From: a virus
Lineage: Duplodnaviria; Heunggongvirae; Uroviricota; Caudoviricetes
Direction: 5' to 3' (one strand)
Virus record (IMG/VR): IMGVR_UViG_3300032007_000002
DNA length: 64,000 nucleotides
The notes under the pieces were generated by a model that was given only the letters and a program-made list of their open reading frames with translations, was not told the DNA's origin and did not search any database. Of this stretch, positions 13,883-41,529 are shown piece by piece; positions within the stretch are counted from its first letter, which is position 1; the number at the start of each line of letters is the position of its first letter. Position numbers and translations under genes: made by a program.

Positions 13883-15568
13883 ATGCTGACACATCCAGAA
13901 GAACCGAGAGAGACTTGGAGTACCAAGGTCCTGAAGCATGCCAGGGACTTTGGTATCGGCAACCCGAGGGGTGCCGACTTTGAACGTCTTTTCAACAGGG
14001 AAGACAGACTGCGTGAGGTGACTGCCGCCGAGAATACTGTCGGCGAGGGCATCACCCAGATGACATACCCGAACGGCAGCGCGACCGACGGGTTCAGCAC
14101 ATACACGCCAGCCTACAACTTCTCCGACGAGAGGTTCGACCCGCAGCAGTTTCAGAACGCGGTCGCCGAGAACCAGGTCAACCTGTTCTGGCGCAAGAAC
14201 GTGGAACGTGCGCTTAAATACGATACGGTCGCGAAGCGTGCCGAGGTGAACGAATCGCTCATCCAGATTTGCAACGAGGCGGTCTATGAGGACGACATTG
14301 GCGACATCTGCTCGCTTGAAATCGACCAGGACCTCGTCTTGGGCGATCCGGTCAAGAAGGAGCTCTGCCGTATCTTCCGACAGGAAGTCCTCCGCCGCAT
14401 CATGAATTTCCGCCGTGTCGGCGCGGAACAGATGCGCTACTTGCTTACCCGCGGGCGCCTGTTCTACGAAATCATCTACGACCCGAAGTCCAGGAAGATA
14501 GTCGGCCTGAACATGCTCCCCGAGGAGAACATGGTCATTATCTACCAGAACAACCTCATCATCGGCTTCCGCCAGATGTTGAGCGGAGCGGCCTTCTCGC
14601 AGACGGGCGGCAAGAACTACATTGATTATTCGCCGAACCAGATCCTTTATGCCTCCCTCGGTATGTATGGCCCGGGCGGCATCAACGACACCCGTTCCAT
14701 CCTGGAACCGGCCATGAAGCCGTACAACCAGTTGAATACGATTGAAGATTCCGTCGTGATGTACCGTGTCCTCTGGGGTAGCGAAAAGCTGATGATGAAG
14801 ATCGATACGTCGGGTATGAACCGCATGCAGGCCGAAAAGTTCATGAAGGACCAGGCCAAGCAGTTCTCCCGCCACCTCGACTACAACCCGATGACCGGCG
14901 AGATTACGAACTTCGGCAAGGTCGTGGGCCTTACGGAACACTATCTCGTGTCCCTCGCGAAGGGCCGTACCGGTTCGACCATCGAACGCATGCAAGGTGG
15001 CGAACAGCTCGGCAACATCGACGACCTGAAATTCTTCAAGCGCAACCTCGTCAACTCGATGATGGTGCCCCCTGGCCGTATCACCGCGCTTGCCGGGGAC
15101 AGCAACAACTACTCCAACGGAAAGATTGGTGAAGTCACACAGGCCGAAGTCTCGTTCGCCAAGCTGGTGCAGAAGTATCAGGCGCCGGTCGAGGACATCA
15201 TGATCCGCCTGTTCGTGATGGTGCTCGAAACCCACAAGGAATATAACGACGACATCAAGGTCCGCGAGAATTTCAGCGTGAAGTTCAGGCGTTCCAACGG
15301 CTTCCAGAACTTCATCGACGCCGATGTGTGGGGCTCCCGCCTCGAAACGTTCTCGAAGATGATGGACAACACCATCTCCAAGGAAAAGCCGGATGCGCCG
15401 CTTTCCAAGAAGTTCGCCTTGAAGTACGGTCTCCGTCTCAACGACGACGAATACACGAAGAACGCCGAATGGCTGGCCCGCGAGAAGGCCGAGGCTGCGG
15501 GCGAGGCCCCTGCCGGAGGCGAGGGCGAAGCCGGTGGCGAAGATGCCGGTGGGCCGCCGATAGGGTAG
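13883..15568 (+). CDS. gp20: portal vertex protein (T4 gp20-like)
   Basis: EV..SL.QI.NEAV, SIL..A.KP.NQL..IEDSVV.YR, KIDT..M...AE, GS.IE.M.GG.QLG.IDD..FF...L, E..F.K.V motifs of gp20. Confidence 0.95.
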   Translation: MLTHPEEPRETWSTKVLKHARDFGIGNPRGADFERLFNREDRLREVTAAENTVGEGITQMTYPNGSATDGFSTYTPAYNFSDERFDPQQFQNAVAENQVNLFWRKNVERALKYDTVAKRAEVNESLIQICNEAVYEDDIGDICSLEIDQDLVLGDPVKKELCRIFRQEVLRRIMNFRRVGAEQMRYLLTRGRLFYEIIYDPKSRKIVGLNMLPEENMVIIYQNNLIIGFRQMLSGAAFSQTGGKNYIDYSPNQILYASLGMYGPGGINDTRSILEPAMKPYNQLNTIEDSVVMYRVLWGSEKLMMKIDTSGMNRMQAEKFMKDQAKQFSRHLDYNPMTGEITNFGKVVGLTEHYLVSLAKGRTGSTIERMQGGEQLGNIDDLKFFKRNLVNSMMVPPGRITALAGDSNNYSNGKIGEVTQAEVSFAKLVQKYQAPVEDIMIRLFVMVLETHKEYNDDIKVRENFSVKFRRSNGFQNFIDADVWGSRLETFSKMMDNTISKEKPDAPLSKKFALKYGLRLNDDEYTKNAEWLAREKAEAAGEAPAGGEGEAGGEDAGGPPIG

Positions 15569-15581
15569 CGCATGACCTCCT

Positions 15582-15618
15582 AAAGGCACCTGGAACAACC
15601 GTTCCGGGTGCTTTTTTC
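15582..15618 (+). terminator. intrinsic terminator after portal
   Basis: AAAGGCACCTGGAAC-aacc-GTTCCGGGTGCTTTT plus T run. Confidence 0.85.
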
Positions 15619-15665
15619 ATTTCAATGTATGATTTTCGACCGTTTTCGGGCGGCTGCCGGGGAAA

Positions 15666-15732
15666 TACTAAACATGAGGTGAATTTTCGGTAGAAGGTCG
15701 CGGATGCGGGTTTCTGCCAGGTTCAGAAACCC
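15666..15732 (+). promoter_or_regulatory. capsid gene promoter variant (TACTAAACA) and 5'-UTR hairpin
   Basis: TAAAC core at 15669; perfect 9-bp stem GGGTTTCTG/CAGAAACCC (15708-15732) just before the AAGGA RBS. Confidence 0.5.
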
Positions 15733-15753
15733 TAACCAAAAGGAATTGCAAAT

Positions 15754-17250
15754 ATGCAGAATCCAGTGAAGAACAGCCTTACCCATAAGTGGCGTGCTTT
15801 CCTCGAAAGCAACATGGGTCCGGCTCCGAAGACCCGCACTGAAGCCAGCATTCTTGCTGTGATGTGCGAAAACCAGAACAAGTGCAACAAGGGTGTGCTT
15901 ACCGAAGGTGCCAACGTCTCGTCTGACGTTGCCCAGTACCAGCAGTATGCCCTCCCGATGATCCGTCGTAAGTTCCAGGAACTCCTGGCCATGAACACGG
16001 TCAGCGTGATCCCGACTACGACCCCGAACGGCATCTATTTCGCCCTTCGTTACCTGTATGACAACGAACCGCTCAAGTCCGTTGCCTTCCGTCAGGGCCA
16101 GAAGCAGGAAATTGGTTACGACCTCGTCGGTGACCACACTTCCTTCGCAGGCTTCCTGAACCCGTGGTCTACCGGCGCAGGTGAAATGCTTTCCAACTAC
16201 TCGGAAGGCACTGACATCTACGGTCGCGCCCGCGGTGCCAACGGCTTCGCTGCTACGCAGGAACCTGGTGGCCAGCTCTTCAACAACTTCGGTCGCTTTG
16301 CCGGCCAGCAGATGGATGGGGATGACTCCTTCGGTGGTTACTCCTACAACATCAAGAAGGCCTCCGTCAAGGTGATTTCCGGTGCCTACCGCGTAGGTAC
16401 CCGCGCAATCAAGAGCCACTACACTCTTGAACTCCAACAGGACATGGCTGCCGGCCACGGCCAGGACGTGGAAGCTCTCCTCCTCGAAGCTCTCCAGTTC
16501 GAAGTGCAACAGGAACAGGACCGTGAAATCCTCATGGCCATGTGCATCGTTGCCCAGAACCCGGCCCTTGGTGGTGAAAAGCCGATCGTGGTTGACCTCG
16601 CCATCGTGAACAACGGTCCTGCCCAGGGTCGTTGGCCGGCCGAACGCATCGCGTCCGGCATCATCTCCACCCTCATCGCTGTGAGCCGCAAGATCTCCCT
16701 CACGACCCGTATGGGTTGCGGTAACTTTGCCATCGTGTCTCCGGACGTCGGTGCTGCAATCTCTACCGTTCAGGGTGCAATCTACTTCAACGGCAACATG
16801 CAGGATATGACCAACCAGCCGGCCGGTGGTGTTGCAAACATCGGTAAGCTCCCGGTCGGTATCCAGATGTACCAGGACATCTACTCTAGCGTTTCCTACG
16901 CCCTCGTGGGATTCAAGGGTCAGAACCAGGGTGAATCTGGTATCATCATGATGCCGTACATCCCGTACATCTTCGTGAAGACGGCCGGTCAGGAAGACGG
17001 TTCTCCGCGCTTGATCGTTAAGTCTCGTTACGCCGTGATCGCCAACCTCCTCGGCGCCGGCCAGTTCTACCGCATGGTTCAGTTCCTCAACATGAACTCT
17101 GTGATCGCTGGCTTCGACGTGACTGCCAACCCGTGGGAAAGCAACGCATCTCTCGGTGCAAGCCTCGAACCGGGTCTCTCTTACGAGCTCCAGTCCAATG
17201 CGCTCGTGAACGCTCCGGCGGGCCTCTCTCAGGAAAGCGGCAACTGGTAA
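15754..17250 (+). CDS. gp23: major capsid protein (T4 gp23-like)
   Basis: LPMIRR..LLA...V.P...P.G..FALRY.Y, TRA.K..YT.EL.QD..A.HG.D.E..L, E.DREI, G.GNF.I.S..V, G....PYIP, P....KSRY. Confidence 0.95.
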   Translation: MQNPVKNSLTHKWRAFLESNMGPAPKTRTEASILAVMCENQNKCNKGVLTEGANVSSDVAQYQQYALPMIRRKFQELLAMNTVSVIPTTTPNGIYFALRYLYDNEPLKSVAFRQGQKQEIGYDLVGDHTSFAGFLNPWSTGAGEMLSNYSEGTDIYGRARGANGFAATQEPGGQLFNNFGRFAGQQMDGDDSFGGYSYNIKKASVKVISGAYRVGTRAIKSHYTLELQQDMAAGHGQDVEALLLEALQFEVQQEQDREILMAMCIVAQNPALGGEKPIVVDLAIVNNGPAQGRWPAERIASGIISTLIAVSRKISLTTRMGCGNFAIVSPDVGAAISTVQGAIYFNGNMQDMTNQPAGGVANIGKLPVGIQMYQDIYSSVSYALVGFKGQNQGESGIIMMPYIPYIFVKTAGQEDGSPRLIVKSRYAVIANLLGAGQFYRMVQFLNMNSVIAGFDVTANPWESNASLGASLEPGLSYELQSNALVNAPAGLSQESGNW

Positions 17251-17282
17251 CCAGCCCAGCCCGTTTACTGACGGACAATATT

Positions 17283-17315
17283 AAGGTGGCAGGGTTTCGG
17301 CCCTGCCACCTTTTT
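17283..17315 (+). terminator. intrinsic terminator after capsid gene (UUCG loop)
   Basis: AAGGTGGCAGGGT-ttcg-GCCCTGCCACCTT-TTT. Confidence 0.9.
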
Positions 17316-17323
17316 GTATATTT
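17315..17323 (+). promoter_or_regulatory. host-type -10 box TGTATATTT, leaderless
   Basis: 5 nt upstream of ATG 17329; overlaps the terminator U-tract. Confidence 0.65.
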
Positions 17324-17328
17324 AGAGT

Positions 17329-17517
17329 ATGAGCAAGTTACCAGATGAAGGGGTCGTAATGGGCGGTCGCGACCCGAACGGGGAAAAGACCGTCATCAAG
17401 ATAGATACCAGGCCGCTGTCGCATGCCAAGGCGAAGCGGTTGATTGAGCAGATGGCGAAGAAGTTCAGGAAGTGCCTGAAATTCGACGCCAAGACCGGCC
17501 AGGTATTGCCTGCATAG
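17329..17517 (+). CDS. 62-aa stand-alone homologue of the portal clip region
   Basis: Ungapped 41-aa alignment to portal residues 301-341, 13 identities. Confidence 0.8.
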   Translation: MSKLPDEGVVMGGRDPNGEKTVIKIDTRPLSHAKAKRLIEQMAKKFRKCLKFDAKTGQVLPA

Positions 17518-17518
17518 C

Positions 17519-17550
17519 AAAAACGGGCCCGCGATTGCGGACCCGTTTTG
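17519..17550. terminator. bidirectional terminator
   Basis: AAAACGGGCCCGC-gatt-GCGGACCCGTTTT between convergent genes. Confidence 0.8.
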
Positions 17551-17563
17551 AAATTGGGGAGGT

Positions 17564-18067
17564 TTATTCGCAGGGGAGGGGATCCCATTCCGCGGCAAAC
17601 TGTGCCTGCGGGGTTCCCATGATGTCCTCGACGACCTTGGCCTCGGACGGCTGGGGTTCGCTGGACTTGTAGAGCATCTGCGTGAGGTTGGCTTCGAGGT
17701 CCAGCCCCTTGTACACCGGCTCCGGGCCGCTGTAGTCCCACTTGTCGAGCTCGTAGTTGCCTTTCGGGAGGGTGCTGACGTCGAACCCTTCCGGGAGATT
17801 GTAGAGGTCGCCGATTGCATAGCAGTCGTACCCGGCCTCGTAGTCTTCGTCGCTGATGTTTTCCCCGTTGTTCGACCACTGGATTGCGAGGAGCTTCCGC
17901 TTGTCCTTGCTGATGTAGCGTTTGTCGTCCGGGAGGGACCACTTGGGTGCACCGCCGACCGCTTCCAGGATGGCGTTGAAAGCCGTTTGTTCGCTGGGGA
18001 AGTGCGACGCGAGCTTGTTTATGGAGTTCTTGAAGTCCGAGATTGCGACGGAAAGTTGTGACTGCAT
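17564..18067 (-). CDS. acidic hypothetical protein, candidate internal head protein
   Basis: 167-aa ORF under late promoter; N-terminal leader ending AFNAILE-A. Confidence 0.6.
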   Translation of the reverse strand: MQSQLSVAISDFKNSINKLASHFPSEQTAFNAILEAVGGAPKWSLPDDKRYISKDKRKLLAIQWSNNGENISDEDYEAGYDCYAIGDLYNLPEGFDVSTLPKGNYELDKWDYSGPEPVYKGLDLEANLTQMLYKSSEPQPSEAKVVEDIMGTPQAQFAAEWDPLPCE

Positions 18068-29906: not shown

Positions 29907-30482
29907 ATGCCGGCCAAGAAGTATAAGTGTGTTTTCCCAGGATGCAATTACGAGACCGATGAGCGCAGGCTCATCGAGTTTCATCATGTGAACCCGAAAG
30001 AACTTGGGGTGAAGCTCAACAAGGATGTGACCATCCAGCTATGCCCCGTCCACCACAAGATGATTTACCACCCGCTCGCGAAGAGCGGGCAGCACGCAAT
30101 CAAGGACGAGCACTCCCTGTCCGTCGTGCAGGTGGCGAATACGACTACCGGGAAGGCCGTCATATTCCGTGACATGGCCGGCCATGAGATAACGGTCGAG
30201 GTGGATAGCCGCCCGCCGAAGCCTAGCGCAATCTATGCGTTGTCGTGGTCCCTCGTTGGCGGCATCTCCGAACAGGAGGTGAACGACTGCGATTCCTACG
30301 TGGAACAGCAGGTCGATATGCGCGGGTTCCATCAGGTAGGAAACACTATCTACTACAATTCTGCACACTGTACGGTGGCCCATGAGCTGCTGAAAGCCTA
30401 CATCACCCAATACATGGTTACCGCCAAGGCGGAGTTCTTTGCCGCGCTTGCCAAGGCCCGGGCGGACTACCGCCGGTTATAA
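29907..30482 (+). CDS. HNH endonuclease-domain protein
   Basis: CVFPGC...EFHHVNP...LCPVHH; leaderless behind TAGTTTT. Confidence 0.75.
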   Translation: MPAKKYKCVFPGCNYETDERRLIEFHHVNPKELGVKLNKDVTIQLCPVHHKMIYHPLAKSGQHAIKDEHSLSVVQVANTTTGKAVIFRDMAGHEITVEVDSRPPKPSAIYALSWSLVGGISEQEVNDCDSYVEQQVDMRGFHQVGNTIYYNSAHCTVAHELLKAYITQYMVTAKAEFFAALAKARADYRRL

Positions 30483-30486
30483 ACTA
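30478..30486 (+). promoter_or_regulatory. late promoter TATAAACTA
   Basis: Exact motif overlapping the HNH stop codon. Confidence 0.78.
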
Positions 30487-30512
30487 GGGTAGAAGAATGT
30501 GTAGGTTTAGCG

Positions 30513-32285
30513 ATGGCGGATGGGAATATAAAGCATTTGATACCGTCGGTCTTGTTCAATACGGAACAGGAATATGCCGGGTATTATGATGACAGCAAGA
30601 AAAGCCGCGCCCGCACGAACATTGGCGTAGAAAGCCTGTCGGGTTCCCGGCTTGGCGATCATTATTTCATGACGCATATTGCGACCGAAAACGGGAACCT
30701 TGTCCCCAAGGCTGTTATACCGGGCATTTCCGACATTGCCAATTTGACCGAAAGCCTTTCCGGCAAGAAAGATACCCAGAACCCTGTGGAGGGCGGCGCA
30801 TCCGGCACGGCTGCGGCAACTTCCGATTTCACGTTCATTTCCAATGTGACGCAGGACCGGCAGGGTGTAATCACCCGTGAATGGAAGAAGGTTCCTGATG
30901 CGAGCACATCGGCAAAGGGAGTCGTTCAGCTATCGGATGCGACCAATTCGAGCAGCCATTCTTTGGCAGCTACCGCCTATGCCGTGAAGCAGGCGTATGA
31001 TGAAGGTCATGGCGCAGTCCATTCTGTTGTCGCATCGAGCACTAACGGAAATGTCACTGTTGATGGGACTGACGTTCAGGTTTATCGGCATCCGAGCCAT
31101 ACCGCCTATACTGGAAAGCCGACCGCAAATGCGACGCCTGGTTTTGGTGATTCGGTCACAATTTCCCAGATTGCGAGCGATGCGCTTGGGCACGTGACCG
31201 GGATGACTGACCGGACGATAACGATTCCGGCAACGAAGGCAAGCAGTTCTAAGTTGGGACTGATCCGTTTGAACTATTCTCCGGCTTCCGGCGCCAAGGA
31301 ATATGCTGTCAAGGTAAATTCCAGCGGCGATGCCTATGTTGCGGTTCCGTGGACGGATAGCGATACGAAGAACACGGTCGGGGTTGGGACCAAGAGCGGG
31401 GTGTCCGATACGATGTCGTTCTATTTCCCGTTCACGTCGTCCGTAAGCGGGAGCAGCCAGCAGTCATATACGAAGACTAACGCAAATACCGGCGATGCGT
31501 TGCTTGAAGCGACGTATGATGCGGCCACGAGCGAATGGTTCTTGGATTTTGCCGGGTTCCGTGTTCCGGTGTTTGCACAGTCGGTGGTAGGGGTCAACGA
31601 CGCCTTTGTTGCAACCGATTATGAGGGCCGGCTGACAGTTAAGAAGGGGCCGGTTCGCTATGAAAACGCTGTGACGGGACTCGCGCCCATTCTCCAGACC
31701 GATGATTACACAATGACCATTATTCAAAAGACTGGCATCATTTATGACGGGTCGCAAGTTACGTTGGGACCAGACAAGACGCCTATTGGTTTTTTACTTC
31801 CGCACGTTACTCCGAATCTTATTCCTATTATGGATCTTGACCAGGATGGCCGGACGTATGCGGATGAGATGGATCGTGTGGTTGCAATGGTCGAATACAA
31901 TGGCAGTAGGCCTCCGCTGCTTGCTGTGCAGTGGCGTAACATTCCTGGACAGGTTCATGAGGTGAGTGTGGAGAATTTTGATTCGCACCATCATGAAGTT
32001 TATGATAAAATATCGAAAATGGTCAGCAATGGCCGAATGATATATACATCTCCGAACGGGGTGTCGTCTAGGTGCTATTTGCAAGATTATTCTTTCGACC
32101 CCAATAATGGGTGGCGTGCTACATTTGCCGGCGTGTCTACGATGGGCAACCTGGCAAGGCTGGGTTTGGTGGACTGTTCGTCAAATCACGGCACGCAAAC
32201 GATGAACGCACGTGAGATGACCTTGTACCCAATCGACATCTCGGGCACTTATGGCAATGAGCGAAACACGATTTACTTCCTGTGA
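30513..32285 (+). CDS. tail fibre protein
   Basis: DASTSAKGVVQLSDATNS.S..LAAT..AVK.AYD is the classic phage tail-fibre repeat; DALGHVTG motif. Confidence 0.8.
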   Translation: MADGNIKHLIPSVLFNTEQEYAGYYDDSKKSRARTNIGVESLSGSRLGDHYFMTHIATENGNLVPKAVIPGISDIANLTESLSGKKDTQNPVEGGASGTAAATSDFTFISNVTQDRQGVITREWKKVPDASTSAKGVVQLSDATNSSSHSLAATAYAVKQAYDEGHGAVHSVVASSTNGNVTVDGTDVQVYRHPSHTAYTGKPTANATPGFGDSVTISQIASDALGHVTGMTDRTITIPATKASSSKLGLIRLNYSPASGAKEYAVKVNSSGDAYVAVPWTDSDTKNTVGVGTKSGVSDTMSFYFPFTSSVSGSSQQSYTKTNANTGDALLEATYDAATSEWFLDFAGFRVPVFAQSVVGVNDAFVATDYEGRLTVKKGPVRYENAVTGLAPILQTDDYTMTIIQKTGIIYDGSQVTLGPDKTPIGFLLPHVTPNLIPIMDLDQDGRTYADEMDRVVAMVEYNGSRPPLLAVQWRNIPGQVHEVSVENFDSHHHEVYDKISKMVSNGRMIYTSPNGVSSRCYLQDYSFDPNNGWRATFAGVSTMGNLARLGLVDCSSNHGTQTMNAREMTLYPIDISGTYGNERNTIYFL

Positions 32286-38512: not shown

Positions 38513-40387
38513 ATGGGCGCCTATAACGGATATGATTATGACATGGGCAGTGCGCTGCTCGAAATGGACAGCATCCTGCTCGAAGCGGGGGAAAGGCCTG
38601 TCTTCGTGGAGGCCGATACCGGAACCTCGGCAGATCCGGCTCCAGACGCCGGGGCGATGTCCCAGGCGGTGTGCGACTGGCTCGCCGACTTTGTAAATTC
38701 CGATGACGGCTGGGGCTACCTGGCCGCGAAACGCAGGTCCGGCAAGCTCGACGTGACAGTCGATGTCGGCGGAGTTACCATCCATGCGGACAACGAGCAC
38801 GAGAAAGGCTCGCCGACGAACTCGAAGGCCCTTGAAGTCAAGGACGGCGAGGTGTTTATCGGCCCGCGCAAGCTGATGGCATCCATCCTTTCTGCAAGTA
38901 TCAACGAGCTCATGGAGCAGGACAAGGATTCCTCATTGCAATCGGCCATCGTCAGCGTCATCCGCGGAGATTCCGCGAAGGGGAACCTGAACGTGAAGTT
39001 CAAGAAGGCCATCGGGGACTTTATCTCCGGCAAGCGCCCGAAGCCGGCCCCGCAGAAGCAGCAGCAACAGCCTGCGTCCCTGCCCGACCGCGTGTGGGCG
39101 TATCTTACCTCCGATGATGCGACCAAGAATAGTGGTCTCGGTGTGGATGCCAAGAATGGCCGGAACGACGGCGCACAGGAAATGCAGCCTGACTTCTATG
39201 GCGAACGCGACATCGACCGCTTCATCCAGGAAACTGCCCAGAAGGACGGCGTTGCTGTCGATCCGGCAACTGTTACGGATGACGATAAGAAGGCTATTCT
39301 CGCCCATCTCCAGAAGGTCGTGGCTGCGGTCAATGAGCTCTCTTCCGACGAGATGTCCGGGGACGATGCCACTGTCGGCAAGTATGTGACTGCCCACCTG
39401 ACAGGAGCCGGGAACGGTACCGGCAAGACTGACGGGCAGGGTGAGAACGGAGACGAGAACGACTGGGCGAAGCAGCTCTGGAAGTTCCTCCTTTCCGATA
39501 ACCAGGACAAGAACCGCATGCTCGGCCAGGACTGCCATCAGGCACGCAAGGCCGATACGCAGGTCGGCGATGATATCTACACCGATGACGCTATCCGGGA
39601 ATACATGACCGTGATGGCCGATGCGAACCCGTCGGAAATTTCCGGCTCGGCTGACAGCATTTCCGGTGCCGACGTGGACGCCTGTCGCGCCGTGATGGGC
39701 AAGGTTCCGCCTGCAATGAACCGTGTTACGCCTGAGCAGTATAACCGCAATGATGTGGAGCTCGGTGCGATTATCACCCAGTACCTTACTGCCGGTGATG
39801 CGAAGAAGGAACAGAACAACGGCATGAAGTCGGTCACTCCGGCAGCAATCATGCGCGGGTTCGAGGCATGGTATTTCGGCCAGTGGGTCCGTACCCGCGA
39901 CGAGGCCGTCAAGCATGTCGAGCGCCTGTTTAGCGGTTCCCCGTTCAGCAGCGATTCCAACGTCAGGAAGCAGATCAATTCCCACGACATCGCGAGCGGA
40001 TTTGCCAACGAGAACTATGTGGCCCGGACGGTCAACGAGTTCAAGGAGGCGATGAAGTCGTCCAAGAACGAGAAGGTAATCCCGGCGATGGACGGCAACG
40101 TGATGATGGCCATTGGCAAGTTCTTCAGCAGCACCCTTCCGGCACGCTACATGAAGCTCCGCCAGGCGGTCCAGGGCGTGGTCGAGAAGAACCCGAAGGC
40201 TGCGAAGGAATGGGAGAAGATTCCTCGCCGCGCAGCTGCGTTCGTTGACAACCGTGTCGATGCCTTCACTACCGAGAAGGTTGGCGGTAACAAGGGTGGC
40301 TGGCTTGAACAGATTGCCCAGGCTACCGAGCGCGTGAACAATTCATTCGGCCTCGAAAACGAGAAGCCGATTGCGGGGTTGAAATGA
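38513..40387 (+). CDS. hypothetical protein, possible internal head/ejection protein
   Basis: N-terminal LLE, LLE-A, FVE-A sites; internal duplication (VWAYLTSD...DFY.E.DI..F / LWKFLLSD...DIY.D..I..Y). Confidence 0.6.
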   Translation: MGAYNGYDYDMGSALLEMDSILLEAGERPVFVEADTGTSADPAPDAGAMSQAVCDWLADFVNSDDGWGYLAAKRRSGKLDVTVDVGGVTIHADNEHEKGSPTNSKALEVKDGEVFIGPRKLMASILSASINELMEQDKDSSLQSAIVSVIRGDSAKGNLNVKFKKAIGDFISGKRPKPAPQKQQQQPASLPDRVWAYLTSDDATKNSGLGVDAKNGRNDGAQEMQPDFYGERDIDRFIQETAQKDGVAVDPATVTDDDKKAILAHLQKVVAAVNELSSDEMSGDDATVGKYVTAHLTGAGNGTGKTDGQGENGDENDWAKQLWKFLLSDNQDKNRMLGQDCHQARKADTQVGDDIYTDDAIREYMTVMADANPSEISGSADSISGADVDACRAVMGKVPPAMNRVTPEQYNRNDVELGAIITQYLTAGDAKKEQNNGMKSVTPAAIMRGFEAWYFGQWVRTRDEAVKHVERLFSGSPFSSDSNVRKQINSHDIASGFANENYVARTVNEFKEAMKSSKNEKVIPAMDGNVMMAIGKFFSSTLPARYMKLRQAVQGVVEKNPKAAKEWEKIPRRAAAFVDNRVDAFTTEKVGGNKGGWLEQIAQATERVNNSFGLENEKPIAGLK

Positions 40388-41529
40388 TCCAGGAAAATAT
40401 GCCGAACCGCTGGCTTAACTGCGCCGTCCCGGGCGTGGCGCTGACGACCTGCATTGGCTCCGTTTACTGCTGGAGCCAGTTCGCCCCCGAGCTCATGAAG
40501 ACTTTCGACTTGTCGAAGGGTGCGGTGAGCGTCGGGTTTACCCTCATCATCTTCTTCCTTGGCATGTGCGCCGCAATCTTCGGTTCGGCCATCGAGAAGA
40601 ACCCGCGCTTCGGTGCGTGGCTGTCCACGATAATCTTCATCACGGGCTTCCTGATGCTCGGGACGTCTGTCCTGATCGAGTCCGTGGCGGCTTTCTACAT
40701 CGCGACCATGTTCATAGGCGCCGGGACGGGCATAGGCTACGTCACGCCGGTAAAGAGCCTGATGAAGTTTTTCGCCGACCACAAGGGGCTTGCGTCCGGG
40801 CTGGCCATTACCGGGTTCGGGCTGGCCAAGTTCATTGCATCCCCGGTCATCGAGTGGCTGCTTGCCACGCTGCCGCTGTATGGCGTGTTCTACGCGCTTG
40901 GCGCGGTATATGCCGTGGTGATGATGCTGTCCAGCCTGTTTATCAGGAAATACCCGTCGGTGGAAATCCCGAAGAACCTTGACTGCTTCCGTTATTCATA
41001 TTTGCTGCGGTCGAGGGAATGGTGGGCCATCTGGTTCATGTTCATGACCAACATCAGCTGTGGCTTGGCGATTATCTCGCAGGAGAAGGGCCTGTTTTCC
41101 GGGCTCGGCATCGCCGCGATAGGCGCCGTCCTGTCAGTCACCGCATTGGCCAACTCCGGCGGTAGGCTGGGGTTCTCCGCGCTTTCCGACCGCATAGGCC
41201 GCAAGGCGTCGTATCATTTCATTTGCAGTTTCGGCATCCTCGGTTCACTGTTCTGCATCACTGGGAGCGTCCCGCTGACCGTGCTCGGCATACTCATGGT
41301 GGAGGCCGCATACGGCGGTAATTTCTCCGGCCTTCCGAGCCTGCTCGCGAAGCGCTTCGGCATCGAGAACGCATCGCGTGTCCATTCCATGACCCTTACC
41401 GGGTGGAGCGTGGGCGGAATTTTCGGCCCGTTGCTCGCGAATAACCTGTCCGGTACCGCGCTCTATGCCGTCCTTGCCGTCCTTTACTTCATTGCGTTCA
41501 CCGTGATGGAAGCCAACGTGAGAAAATAA
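40384..41529 (+). CDS. MFS transporter, oxalate:formate antiporter (OFA)-like family
   Basis: About 12 hydrophobic segments; GSVY.WS.F, G.GIGY.TPV..L.K.F.D.KGLASGLAI.GFG, N..GRL.F..LSD.IGR, YGG.F...P. Confidence 0.88.
   Translation: MIQENMPNRWLNCAVPGVALTTCIGSVYCWSQFAPELMKTFDLSKGAVSVGFTLIIFFLGMCAAIFGSAIEKNPRFGAWLSTIIFITGFLMLGTSVLIESVAAFYIATMFIGAGTGIGYVTPVKSLMKFFADHKGLASGLAITGFGLAKFIASPVIEWLLATLPLYGVFYALGAVYAVVMMLSSLFIRKYPSVEIPKNLDCFRYSYLLRSREWWAIWFMFMTNISCGLAIISQEKGLFSGLGIAAIGAVLSVTALANSGGRLGFSALSDRIGRKASYHFICSFGILGSLFCITGSVPLTVLGILMVEAAYGGNFSGLPSLLAKRFGIENASRVHSMTLTGWSVGGIFGPLLANNLSGTALYAVLAVLYFIAFTVMEANVRK

Follow-up and report, generated by a model that had tools for sequence, protein, structure and literature searches.

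In phage T4 the clip of the portal protein gp20 (residues 279-358) consists of three strands and helix α6, lies outside the capsid and binds first the terminase and afterwards the neck (PMC4493910). The clip sheet is the sole main-chain contact between portal subunits, residues N291, M292, R295 and K296 contact the terminase gp17, and a synthetic peptide of residues 288-311 both binds gp17 and inhibits packaging (PMC4493910). The arm of gp13 docks on helix α6 of the clip (PMC12929587). Mimicry of immune triggers is a known phage tactic, the example being the SPbeta inhibitor DSAD1, which imitates the tail tube protein and takes its place in the DSR2 pocket (PMC10973363). In the portions consulted of the reports on Avs4, Avs11, RAZR and Swarozyc, portals are described as a common immune trigger, Swarozyc binds the portal around stem and clip, and a whole monomer or ring is required for switching these defences on; the same portions describe STAND sensors as wrapping whole folds and name no clip-fragment inhibitor of any of the four systems. 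Small proteins may also be directed against other phages: the Ppi/Rpp-type proteins of PICI satellites block the DNA packaging of a rival, target the small terminase and are unrelated to portals.

Here we describe a portal-clip mini-gene (17329-17517, + strand, ATG to TAG, 62 aa) in a window of 64,000 nucleotides, the whole stretch of viral DNA that was analysed. The mini-protein is homologous to residues 281-321 of the T4 gp20 clip (PF07230; PDB 3JA7, 6UZC). Unlike that clip, it has a natural gene to itself. The two remaining strands of the clip are missing, as are stem, wing and crown, so that no channel is formed; the gene has a putative early-type promoter and about nine times the dN/dS of the portal, and the protein has family-specific residues. 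The logic we propose would be that of DSAD1, a small accessory phage protein resembling a structural trigger and blocking its sensor. The mini-protein resembles an immunity-triggering phage protein, the portal clip, and is small, accessory and patchily distributed, and its promoter motif, common to SbcD-like and phosphoesterase genes and with no late motif, may allow early expression. In contrast to DSAD1 it can be recognised as a piece of the very gene that encodes the trigger, here the portal, and sensor binding is only proposed; candidate targets would be Avs4, Avs11, RAZR and Swarozyc. If the mini-protein acted against rival phages it would share with Ppi/Rpp the blocking of a rival's packaging by a small protein, but the mini-gene sits on an autonomous jumbo phage and not on a satellite: genes for portal and capsid are present in the carrier, and a large terminase in the nearest record of its clade. 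A terminase of the clade lies at L090:1273-2979.

Homology of the mini-protein to the portal clip

The original prediction had aligned the 62-aa ORF without gaps to the portal encoded by the same phage (561 aa, T4-type gp20, 13883-15568, + strand, Pfam E 2.8e-64), and this alignment was reproduced. Residues 19-59 of the mini-protein (17383-17505, + strand) match residues 301-341 of the own portal (14783-14905, + strand) with 13 of 41 positions identical and 28 of 41 positive (E 6e-8), corresponding to T4 gp20 281-321. The local score of 76 was reached by none of 5000 shuffled sequences (mean 28, sd 4, maximum 58), so that the match withstood the shuffling that had been suggested as its check. 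Two profile libraries built independently of this genome also recognised the mini-protein, namely Pfam Portal_T4 (PF07230; E 5.5e-5, profile positions 205-245 of 433) with 22.5 bits, just below the curated cut-off of 22.9 bits, and the portal profile PHROG 213 (E 2.7e-4). The best PDB sequence match of the family profile was T4 gp20 284-321, albeit weak (E 0.04-0.05). At the DNA level 67 of 123 positions are identical to the portal stretch, which excludes an assembly echo and agrees with the predicted divergence; descent from the own portal was rejected as well (p-AU 0.011), which likewise speaks against a recent duplication.

Codon usage prefers the frame of the mini-gene to the other five frames, and stops flank the gene on both sides, with identical ends in 37 alleles. 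The frame is shared with the upstream major capsid gene gp23 (498 aa, 15754-17250, + strand), but readthrough was rejected since three stops, TAA, TGA and TAG, intervene, and recoding of TAG is not indicated because many genes here end in TAG. On sequence grounds the derivation of the mini-gene from a T4-type portal clip and its status as a real, stand-alone gene are confirmed, and the view of it as a dedicated gene under selection has held. With 62 residues, as compared to a portal of about 500 residues in one chain, it has no wing, stem, whole clip or crown, and the channel-forming stem helices are missing. The mini-protein, which is basic (pI 10.0), is thus to be classified as a derived portal fragment and not itself as a portal.

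The mini-protein spans the equivalent of the entire inhibitory T4 peptide 288-311 together with the terminase- and neck-docking tip and thus corresponds to the docking half of the clip, i.e. first strand, helix α6 and hairpin. Its parts are an 18-residue N-terminal arm of low confidence, a strand (residues 21-27), helix α6 (32-45) and a β-hairpin (50-61). The AlphaFold2 model of the monomer shows helix and hairpin at these positions and leaves the first strand unpaired, and is weak (pTM 0.34). Using this weak model in fold searches, the T4 portal was top-ranked in the PDB, but at E 1.1, and two portal clusters were among the Atlas rows (TM 0.35). Feature searches on the mini-protein returned blank. 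A co-folding model that paired the mini-protein with two portal chains (residues 95-505 of the own portal) scored 0.00 and gave evidence in neither direction, and the structure model of the own portal (pLDDT 46) was too poor for use.

Transcription signals and neighbouring genes

The mini-gene is preceded by the promoter-like motif TGTATATTT (17315-17323, + strand) located 5 nt upstream of the ATG in a leaderless layout, TGTATATTT-n5-ATG spanning 17315-17331. Motif and spacing are conserved in all 11 orthologous loci, with the letters of the 5-nt spacer differing. In the window, motifs of this class have an ATG 4-6 nt downstream at six of nine places, as compared to about 5% per site by chance, a statistic that is partly post hoc as the pattern of the class came from the original prediction. 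Genes with such a motif include SbcD-like and phosphoesterase genes and one tail-fibre gene, and because of the latter the class is not strictly non-structural. A scan of the window counted 14 occurrences of the late motif TATAAAC, where 4 would be expected, and none of them lies upstream of the mini-gene. The predicted leaderless promoter of its own and the missing late motif were thus both recovered; that the mini-gene is early and leaderless and its motif read by the host polymerase, the host-type part of the prediction, is what we infer from this arrangement. The tail-fibre gene carries both the late TATAAAC and a leaderless TGTAGGTTT-n4-ATG motif (30478-30516).

Upstream, the capsid gene ends in an intrinsic terminator as predicted (17283-17316, + strand; 13-pair hairpin at 17283-17312 plus T run, folding z -7.5), and the T run ahead of TGTATATTT doubles as the tail of this terminator. 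The terminator-like hairpin probably insulates the mini-gene from the late transcript. Downstream lies a putative bidirectional terminator (17519-17550, both strands) shared with a convergent gene of 167 aa (17564-18067, - strand) that stands behind a late TATAAAC motif and has no function assigned. The predicted site was found here as a hairpin that has T runs on both strands (~17520-17550) and is kept in orthologous loci; it folds with z -2.5 on the + and -4.5 on the - strand and is absent from the list of the terminator scan.

Portal and capsid genes follow each other directly (13883-17250; L008:4726-9706 in the sister clade). The sister clade has a head protease gene after gp23, and the T4 gene order 20-21-22-23 is rearranged in these phages. 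The window also holds a phage-borne major facilitator superfamily transporter (40384-41529; Pfam MFS_1, E 7e-24).

Alleles, selection and free clip relatives in other jumbo phages

Orthologues of the mini-gene form 15 protein clusters with 67-94% identity on rumen-type jumbo-phage contigs of up to 439 kb, the carrier clade being rumen jumbo phages of about 436 kb. Wherever neighbours were readable the gene is placed between gp23 and the 167-aa gene. We collected 37 distinct intact alleles, all with the same stop, and codon models gave a dN/dS of 0.35 with neutrality rejected (2dL 14.6-16.4), so that the intact orthologues looked for and the selection test both argue against a decaying relic. 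Neutrality was also rejected for the clip part alone (dN/dS 0.41, 2dL 8.1). Codons 1-18 have a dN/dS of 0.22, and because of this the first ATG is favoured over the in-frame ATG at 17359. About 60% of the sites fall into a class with dN/dS 0.10 and about 40% into one at 0.8 (free two-class model 0.10 / 0.81); a class above 1 was not found and M2a was no better than M1a, in a test limited by few sequences and recombination.

Among six genes tested the mini-gene has the highest dN/dS, its neighbours ranging from 0.04 to 0.13 and the portal being at 0.04. Strains whose mini-proteins are 67-94% identical have portals that are 97.5-99.6% identical, and the 41 clip residues of the portal are invariant in all strains of the clade examined. 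Variable sites of the mini-protein concentrate at residues 18-20, 29-30, 39-42 and 47-49; they include the tip (29, 30) and helix residues 37-49. Near-constant are the first strand, D26-R28, A35, K36, L38, K44, F46, L50 and G57. One allele is frameshifted by a 1-nt insertion at codon 20, seen in three samples of one study on a 436-kb contig; broken alleles are under-counted in protein databases. The mini-gene is thus selected yet dispensable, and its rate of change far exceeds that of the machinery from which it was copied.

In the frameshifted allele (L016:9985-10174, also L017 and L018) a synonymous change in codon 10 removes a stop of the shifted frame, which may be compensation or chance, as another allele also lacks that stop; a downstream ATG gives a product of 57 aa with the clip intact. 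Two further sequences (P0016, P0017) were rejected as natural variants, as the short contigs L023 and L024 join the mini-gene to unrelated DNA and are probably assembly chimeras. One strain carries an IS605/TnpB element inserted after a glycosyltransferase gene (L016:16618-18000).

A profile search of 1.84 billion proteins yielded two further free clip proteins of 46 aa and 76-77 aa, and both sit in accessory positions. The 46-aa protein belongs to another T4-like phage with 50% G+C, is coupled to a 122-aa gene and forms part of a cassette that has a TATATTT motif and a terminator to itself and stands directly ahead of the head protease operon; strains with a 94-96% identical protease do not have it at that place. 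The 76-77-aa protein, a cluster of 32 sequences, comes from a 411-kb phage with 32% G+C and passes the Pfam Portal_T4 cut-off with 28.9 bits. It sits inside a long series of some 50 small genes, NADAR and Thg1 among them, and head genes are absent for 10 kb around it; its family has a dN/dS of 0.16 with neutrality rejected (2dL 9.3). All three lineages have their own start codons at the same clip boundary and keep the clip boundaries and the hydrophobic pattern of the portal, with N- and C-terminal additions that differ between them; two of the three are strongly basic (pI above 10), the 77-aa lineage being acidic (pI 4.7). In the 411-kb phage, genes for a glycoside hydrolase family 10 protein, a SprT-like protein, Thg1 and NADAR precede the run of small genes (L042:1683-8146). 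The NADAR family includes anti-DarTG proteins (PMC11825919).

The sister clade of the window phage (65% portal identity) has other genes in the slot after gp23. At least two different genes follow the capsid terminator there (L005, L006, L011), marking a variable accessory slot, and we take one to be acetyltransferase-like and the other zinc-finger or homing-endonuclease-like. Thirteen related records, two of them complete, contained the full portal only or nothing, save one weak match in a complete 419-kb phage (L081, G011:C1:364113-364193; E 0.1, 195-codon frame), which could be a fused clip or chance. No relative was found in the bacterial or archaeal genomes searched, and for cultured phages the matches listed were full portals or chance matches, with no short-gene relative among them. 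Longer or fused forms did not score in a search that was weak, as it missed full portals too. The genome G002 of the sister clade has two Terminase_6N matches of 560 and 484 codons (L091, L093).

In a tree of 41 columns with long branches, the three mini-protein lineages form one group (support 93/94, without a star), which a long stem connects to the portals of rumen jumbo phages among which it falls. Grouping of the mini-proteins with their own portal was rejected, as given above, and a separate origin of the 46-aa protein was not (p-AU 0.21). Residues common to all members of the family and absent from 20 portals are T21 and I23, as well as K or R at position 36, where portals have E or S. 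A single origin of the three lineages is likely, and the mini-gene of the window probably does not derive from the portal of this phage. Since the three lineages group apart from portals, the mini-proteins would constitute an old, mobile and previously unnamed family rather than a recent duplicate. Both this family, shared with other jumbo-phage lineages, and the probable origin outside the own portal had been missed in the original prediction. Its statement that no free portal-clip protein has been described was borne out in the literature searched, a jumbo-phage review included, where subscription journals were thinly covered.

Candidate functions of the mini-protein

A partner in the phage's own assembly line would be expected to be as fixed as the clip. 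The mini-protein is not; it varies, its gene lacks a late promoter and close relatives of the phage do without it, and because of this its target should lie outside that line, in a host sensor or in the proteins of a rival. The suggestion that it times or titrates the phage's own terminase fared badly in particular: the own clip is invariant, the mini-protein differs from it and keeps changing at the tip that contacts the terminase, and the gene is patchy and frameshifted in one allele. More broadly, the mini-protein could assist own assembly by keeping terminase or neck proteins back while heads are still unfinished, or by shielding the open strand of unassembled portal monomers, and the gene does adjoin portal and capsid genes, the 46-aa relative lies just ahead of the head protease operon and the first strand is almost invariant in the 37 alleles. 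We consider this improbable, given the missing late promoter, the lack of such a gene in the sister clade and in phages closely related to the one with the 46-aa protein, the fast change against an invariant clip, the frameshifted allele in a 436-kb contig, and the 77-aa relative, whose run of small genes has no head gene within 10 kb. Even less can be said for a functionless, decaying remnant of a portal duplication or rearrangement. The highest dN/dS of six genes, the roughly 40% of sites near neutral and the natural frameshift would suit a relic, but neutrality was rejected for the whole gene, the clip part and the 77-aa family, the dN/dS is 0.35 and not near 1, 37 alleles are intact against a single frameshifted one, promoter spacing is conserved, and three lineages have their own starts at the same boundary, with descent from the adjacent portal rejected; this explanation is largely refuted and very improbable. 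That the clip was turned into a small scaffold with a different task, for instance to bind nucleic acid or a host protein unconnected with portals, is unlikely: the long stem branch, the family-specific residues including a charge reversal in the helix, the strongly basic nature of two lineages and their differing terminal additions fit it, but all three lineages keep the clip boundaries and the hydrophobic pattern of portals, and the 77-aa lineage is acidic overall.

Two outward-directed explanations, both raised before, have to be weighed against each other. The mini-protein may be a weapon against co-infecting relatives that binds the large terminase or neck adaptor of the rival, or caps its growing portal ring via the unpaired strand, the phage's own proteins being spared by drift. 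The gp17-binding T4 peptide that stops packaging (PMC4493910) has its equivalent in the mini-protein, its helix α6 is also the docking site of gp13 (PMC12929587), the clip sheet makes the only main-chain contact between subunits, the monomer model leaves the first strand of the mini-protein unpaired, and jumbo phages with 54-65% identical portals have the same promoter motifs and hence may share hosts. As a rule, however, a terminase docks specifically on its cognate portal, whereas the window protein is no nearer to any one of the rival portals sampled than to the others (10-15 of 41 identical), and the family is common to distant phages whose rivals differ. We regard such a weapon as possible but rather unlikely. 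The occurrence across distant phages would better suit a target that reads shape and tolerates sequence change than a cognate terminase.

Our tentative preference, held with some doubt, is that the mini-protein is a decoy for a portal-sensing host defence. An ancestral jumbo phage would have cut out the exposed half of the clip (strand, helix α6, hairpin) as an accessory counter-defence gene, and the protein would be made from its own early-type leaderless promoter, ahead of and separate from head assembly. An exact copy of the clip would be self-harming because the T4 peptide of the same stretch binds terminase and blocks packaging (PMC4493910). Retaining the shape of the clip while drifting in sequence from the own clip would leave the phage's own terminase and neck unjammed. 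The mini-protein would then occupy a host protein that recognises portals, either a STAND sensor of the Avs4/Avs11 type or one that assembles into rings, as RAZR and Swarozyc do, and would do so without switching it on, since the stem, wing and ring needed for activation are missing. It is conceivable, at a similar level of caution, that jumbo phages excise the immune-exposed tip of an essential structural gene and keep a mobile family of decoy mini-proteins that silences portal-sensing defences.

Several observations weigh against such a decoy. There is no site class with dN/dS above 1, and the faster change may reflect relaxed constraint and not an arms race. Forty-one residues may be too few to bind a STAND sensor, and a clip fragment could activate a sensor instead of blocking it. 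The promoter class includes a tail-fibre gene, and placement and selection pattern suit interference with rival phages equally. Decoy and rival poisoning both appear to fit the available sequences and could not be told apart.

The mini-proteins are a real, selected and previously undescribed family from the portal clip. They may represent a mimicry-based counter-defence, or an interference with packaging, that is reached by an unusual route. The portal is among the features most often recognised by bacterial immunity, and it is not free to change. That selection keeps a free copy of its exposed tip suggests a general escape, in which the essential protein stays fixed and a disposable fragment takes the pressure. 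A decoy, if true, would be a portal-sensor inhibitor of obvious origin and a probe for such sensors in rumen bacteria, and would define a class of counter-defence by excision of the trigger that could be found via short free fragments of virion genes. A terminase blocker, on the other hand, would be a phage-against-phage weapon and the natural counterpart of a packaging inhibitor known so far only as a synthetic T4 peptide. Either way the protein is short and cheap to test, and free fragments of virion genes would serve as a search rule for more such factors.

RNA contigs from two studies stop at 17274 and 17276, a weak hint of termination behind the capsid gene. In four metatranscriptomes, contigs were seen over the capsid gene, in one of them over the 167-aa gene too, but in none over the mini-gene; we did not count this gap, as contigs are informative on presence alone and an RNA of about 200 nt readily escapes assembly. 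A single Fibrobacter genome among 13 exact matches of the promoter 21-mer, together with small motif counts, is too little to name Fibrobacter as the host. Capsid RNA contigs of three studies start exactly at 15697 (15697-17276 of the window), about 25 nt past the late-motif variant TACTAAAC; 15697 is a possible transcription start or processing site, contigs as such being unable to show starts. The phage clade was present in 14 rumen RNA runs.
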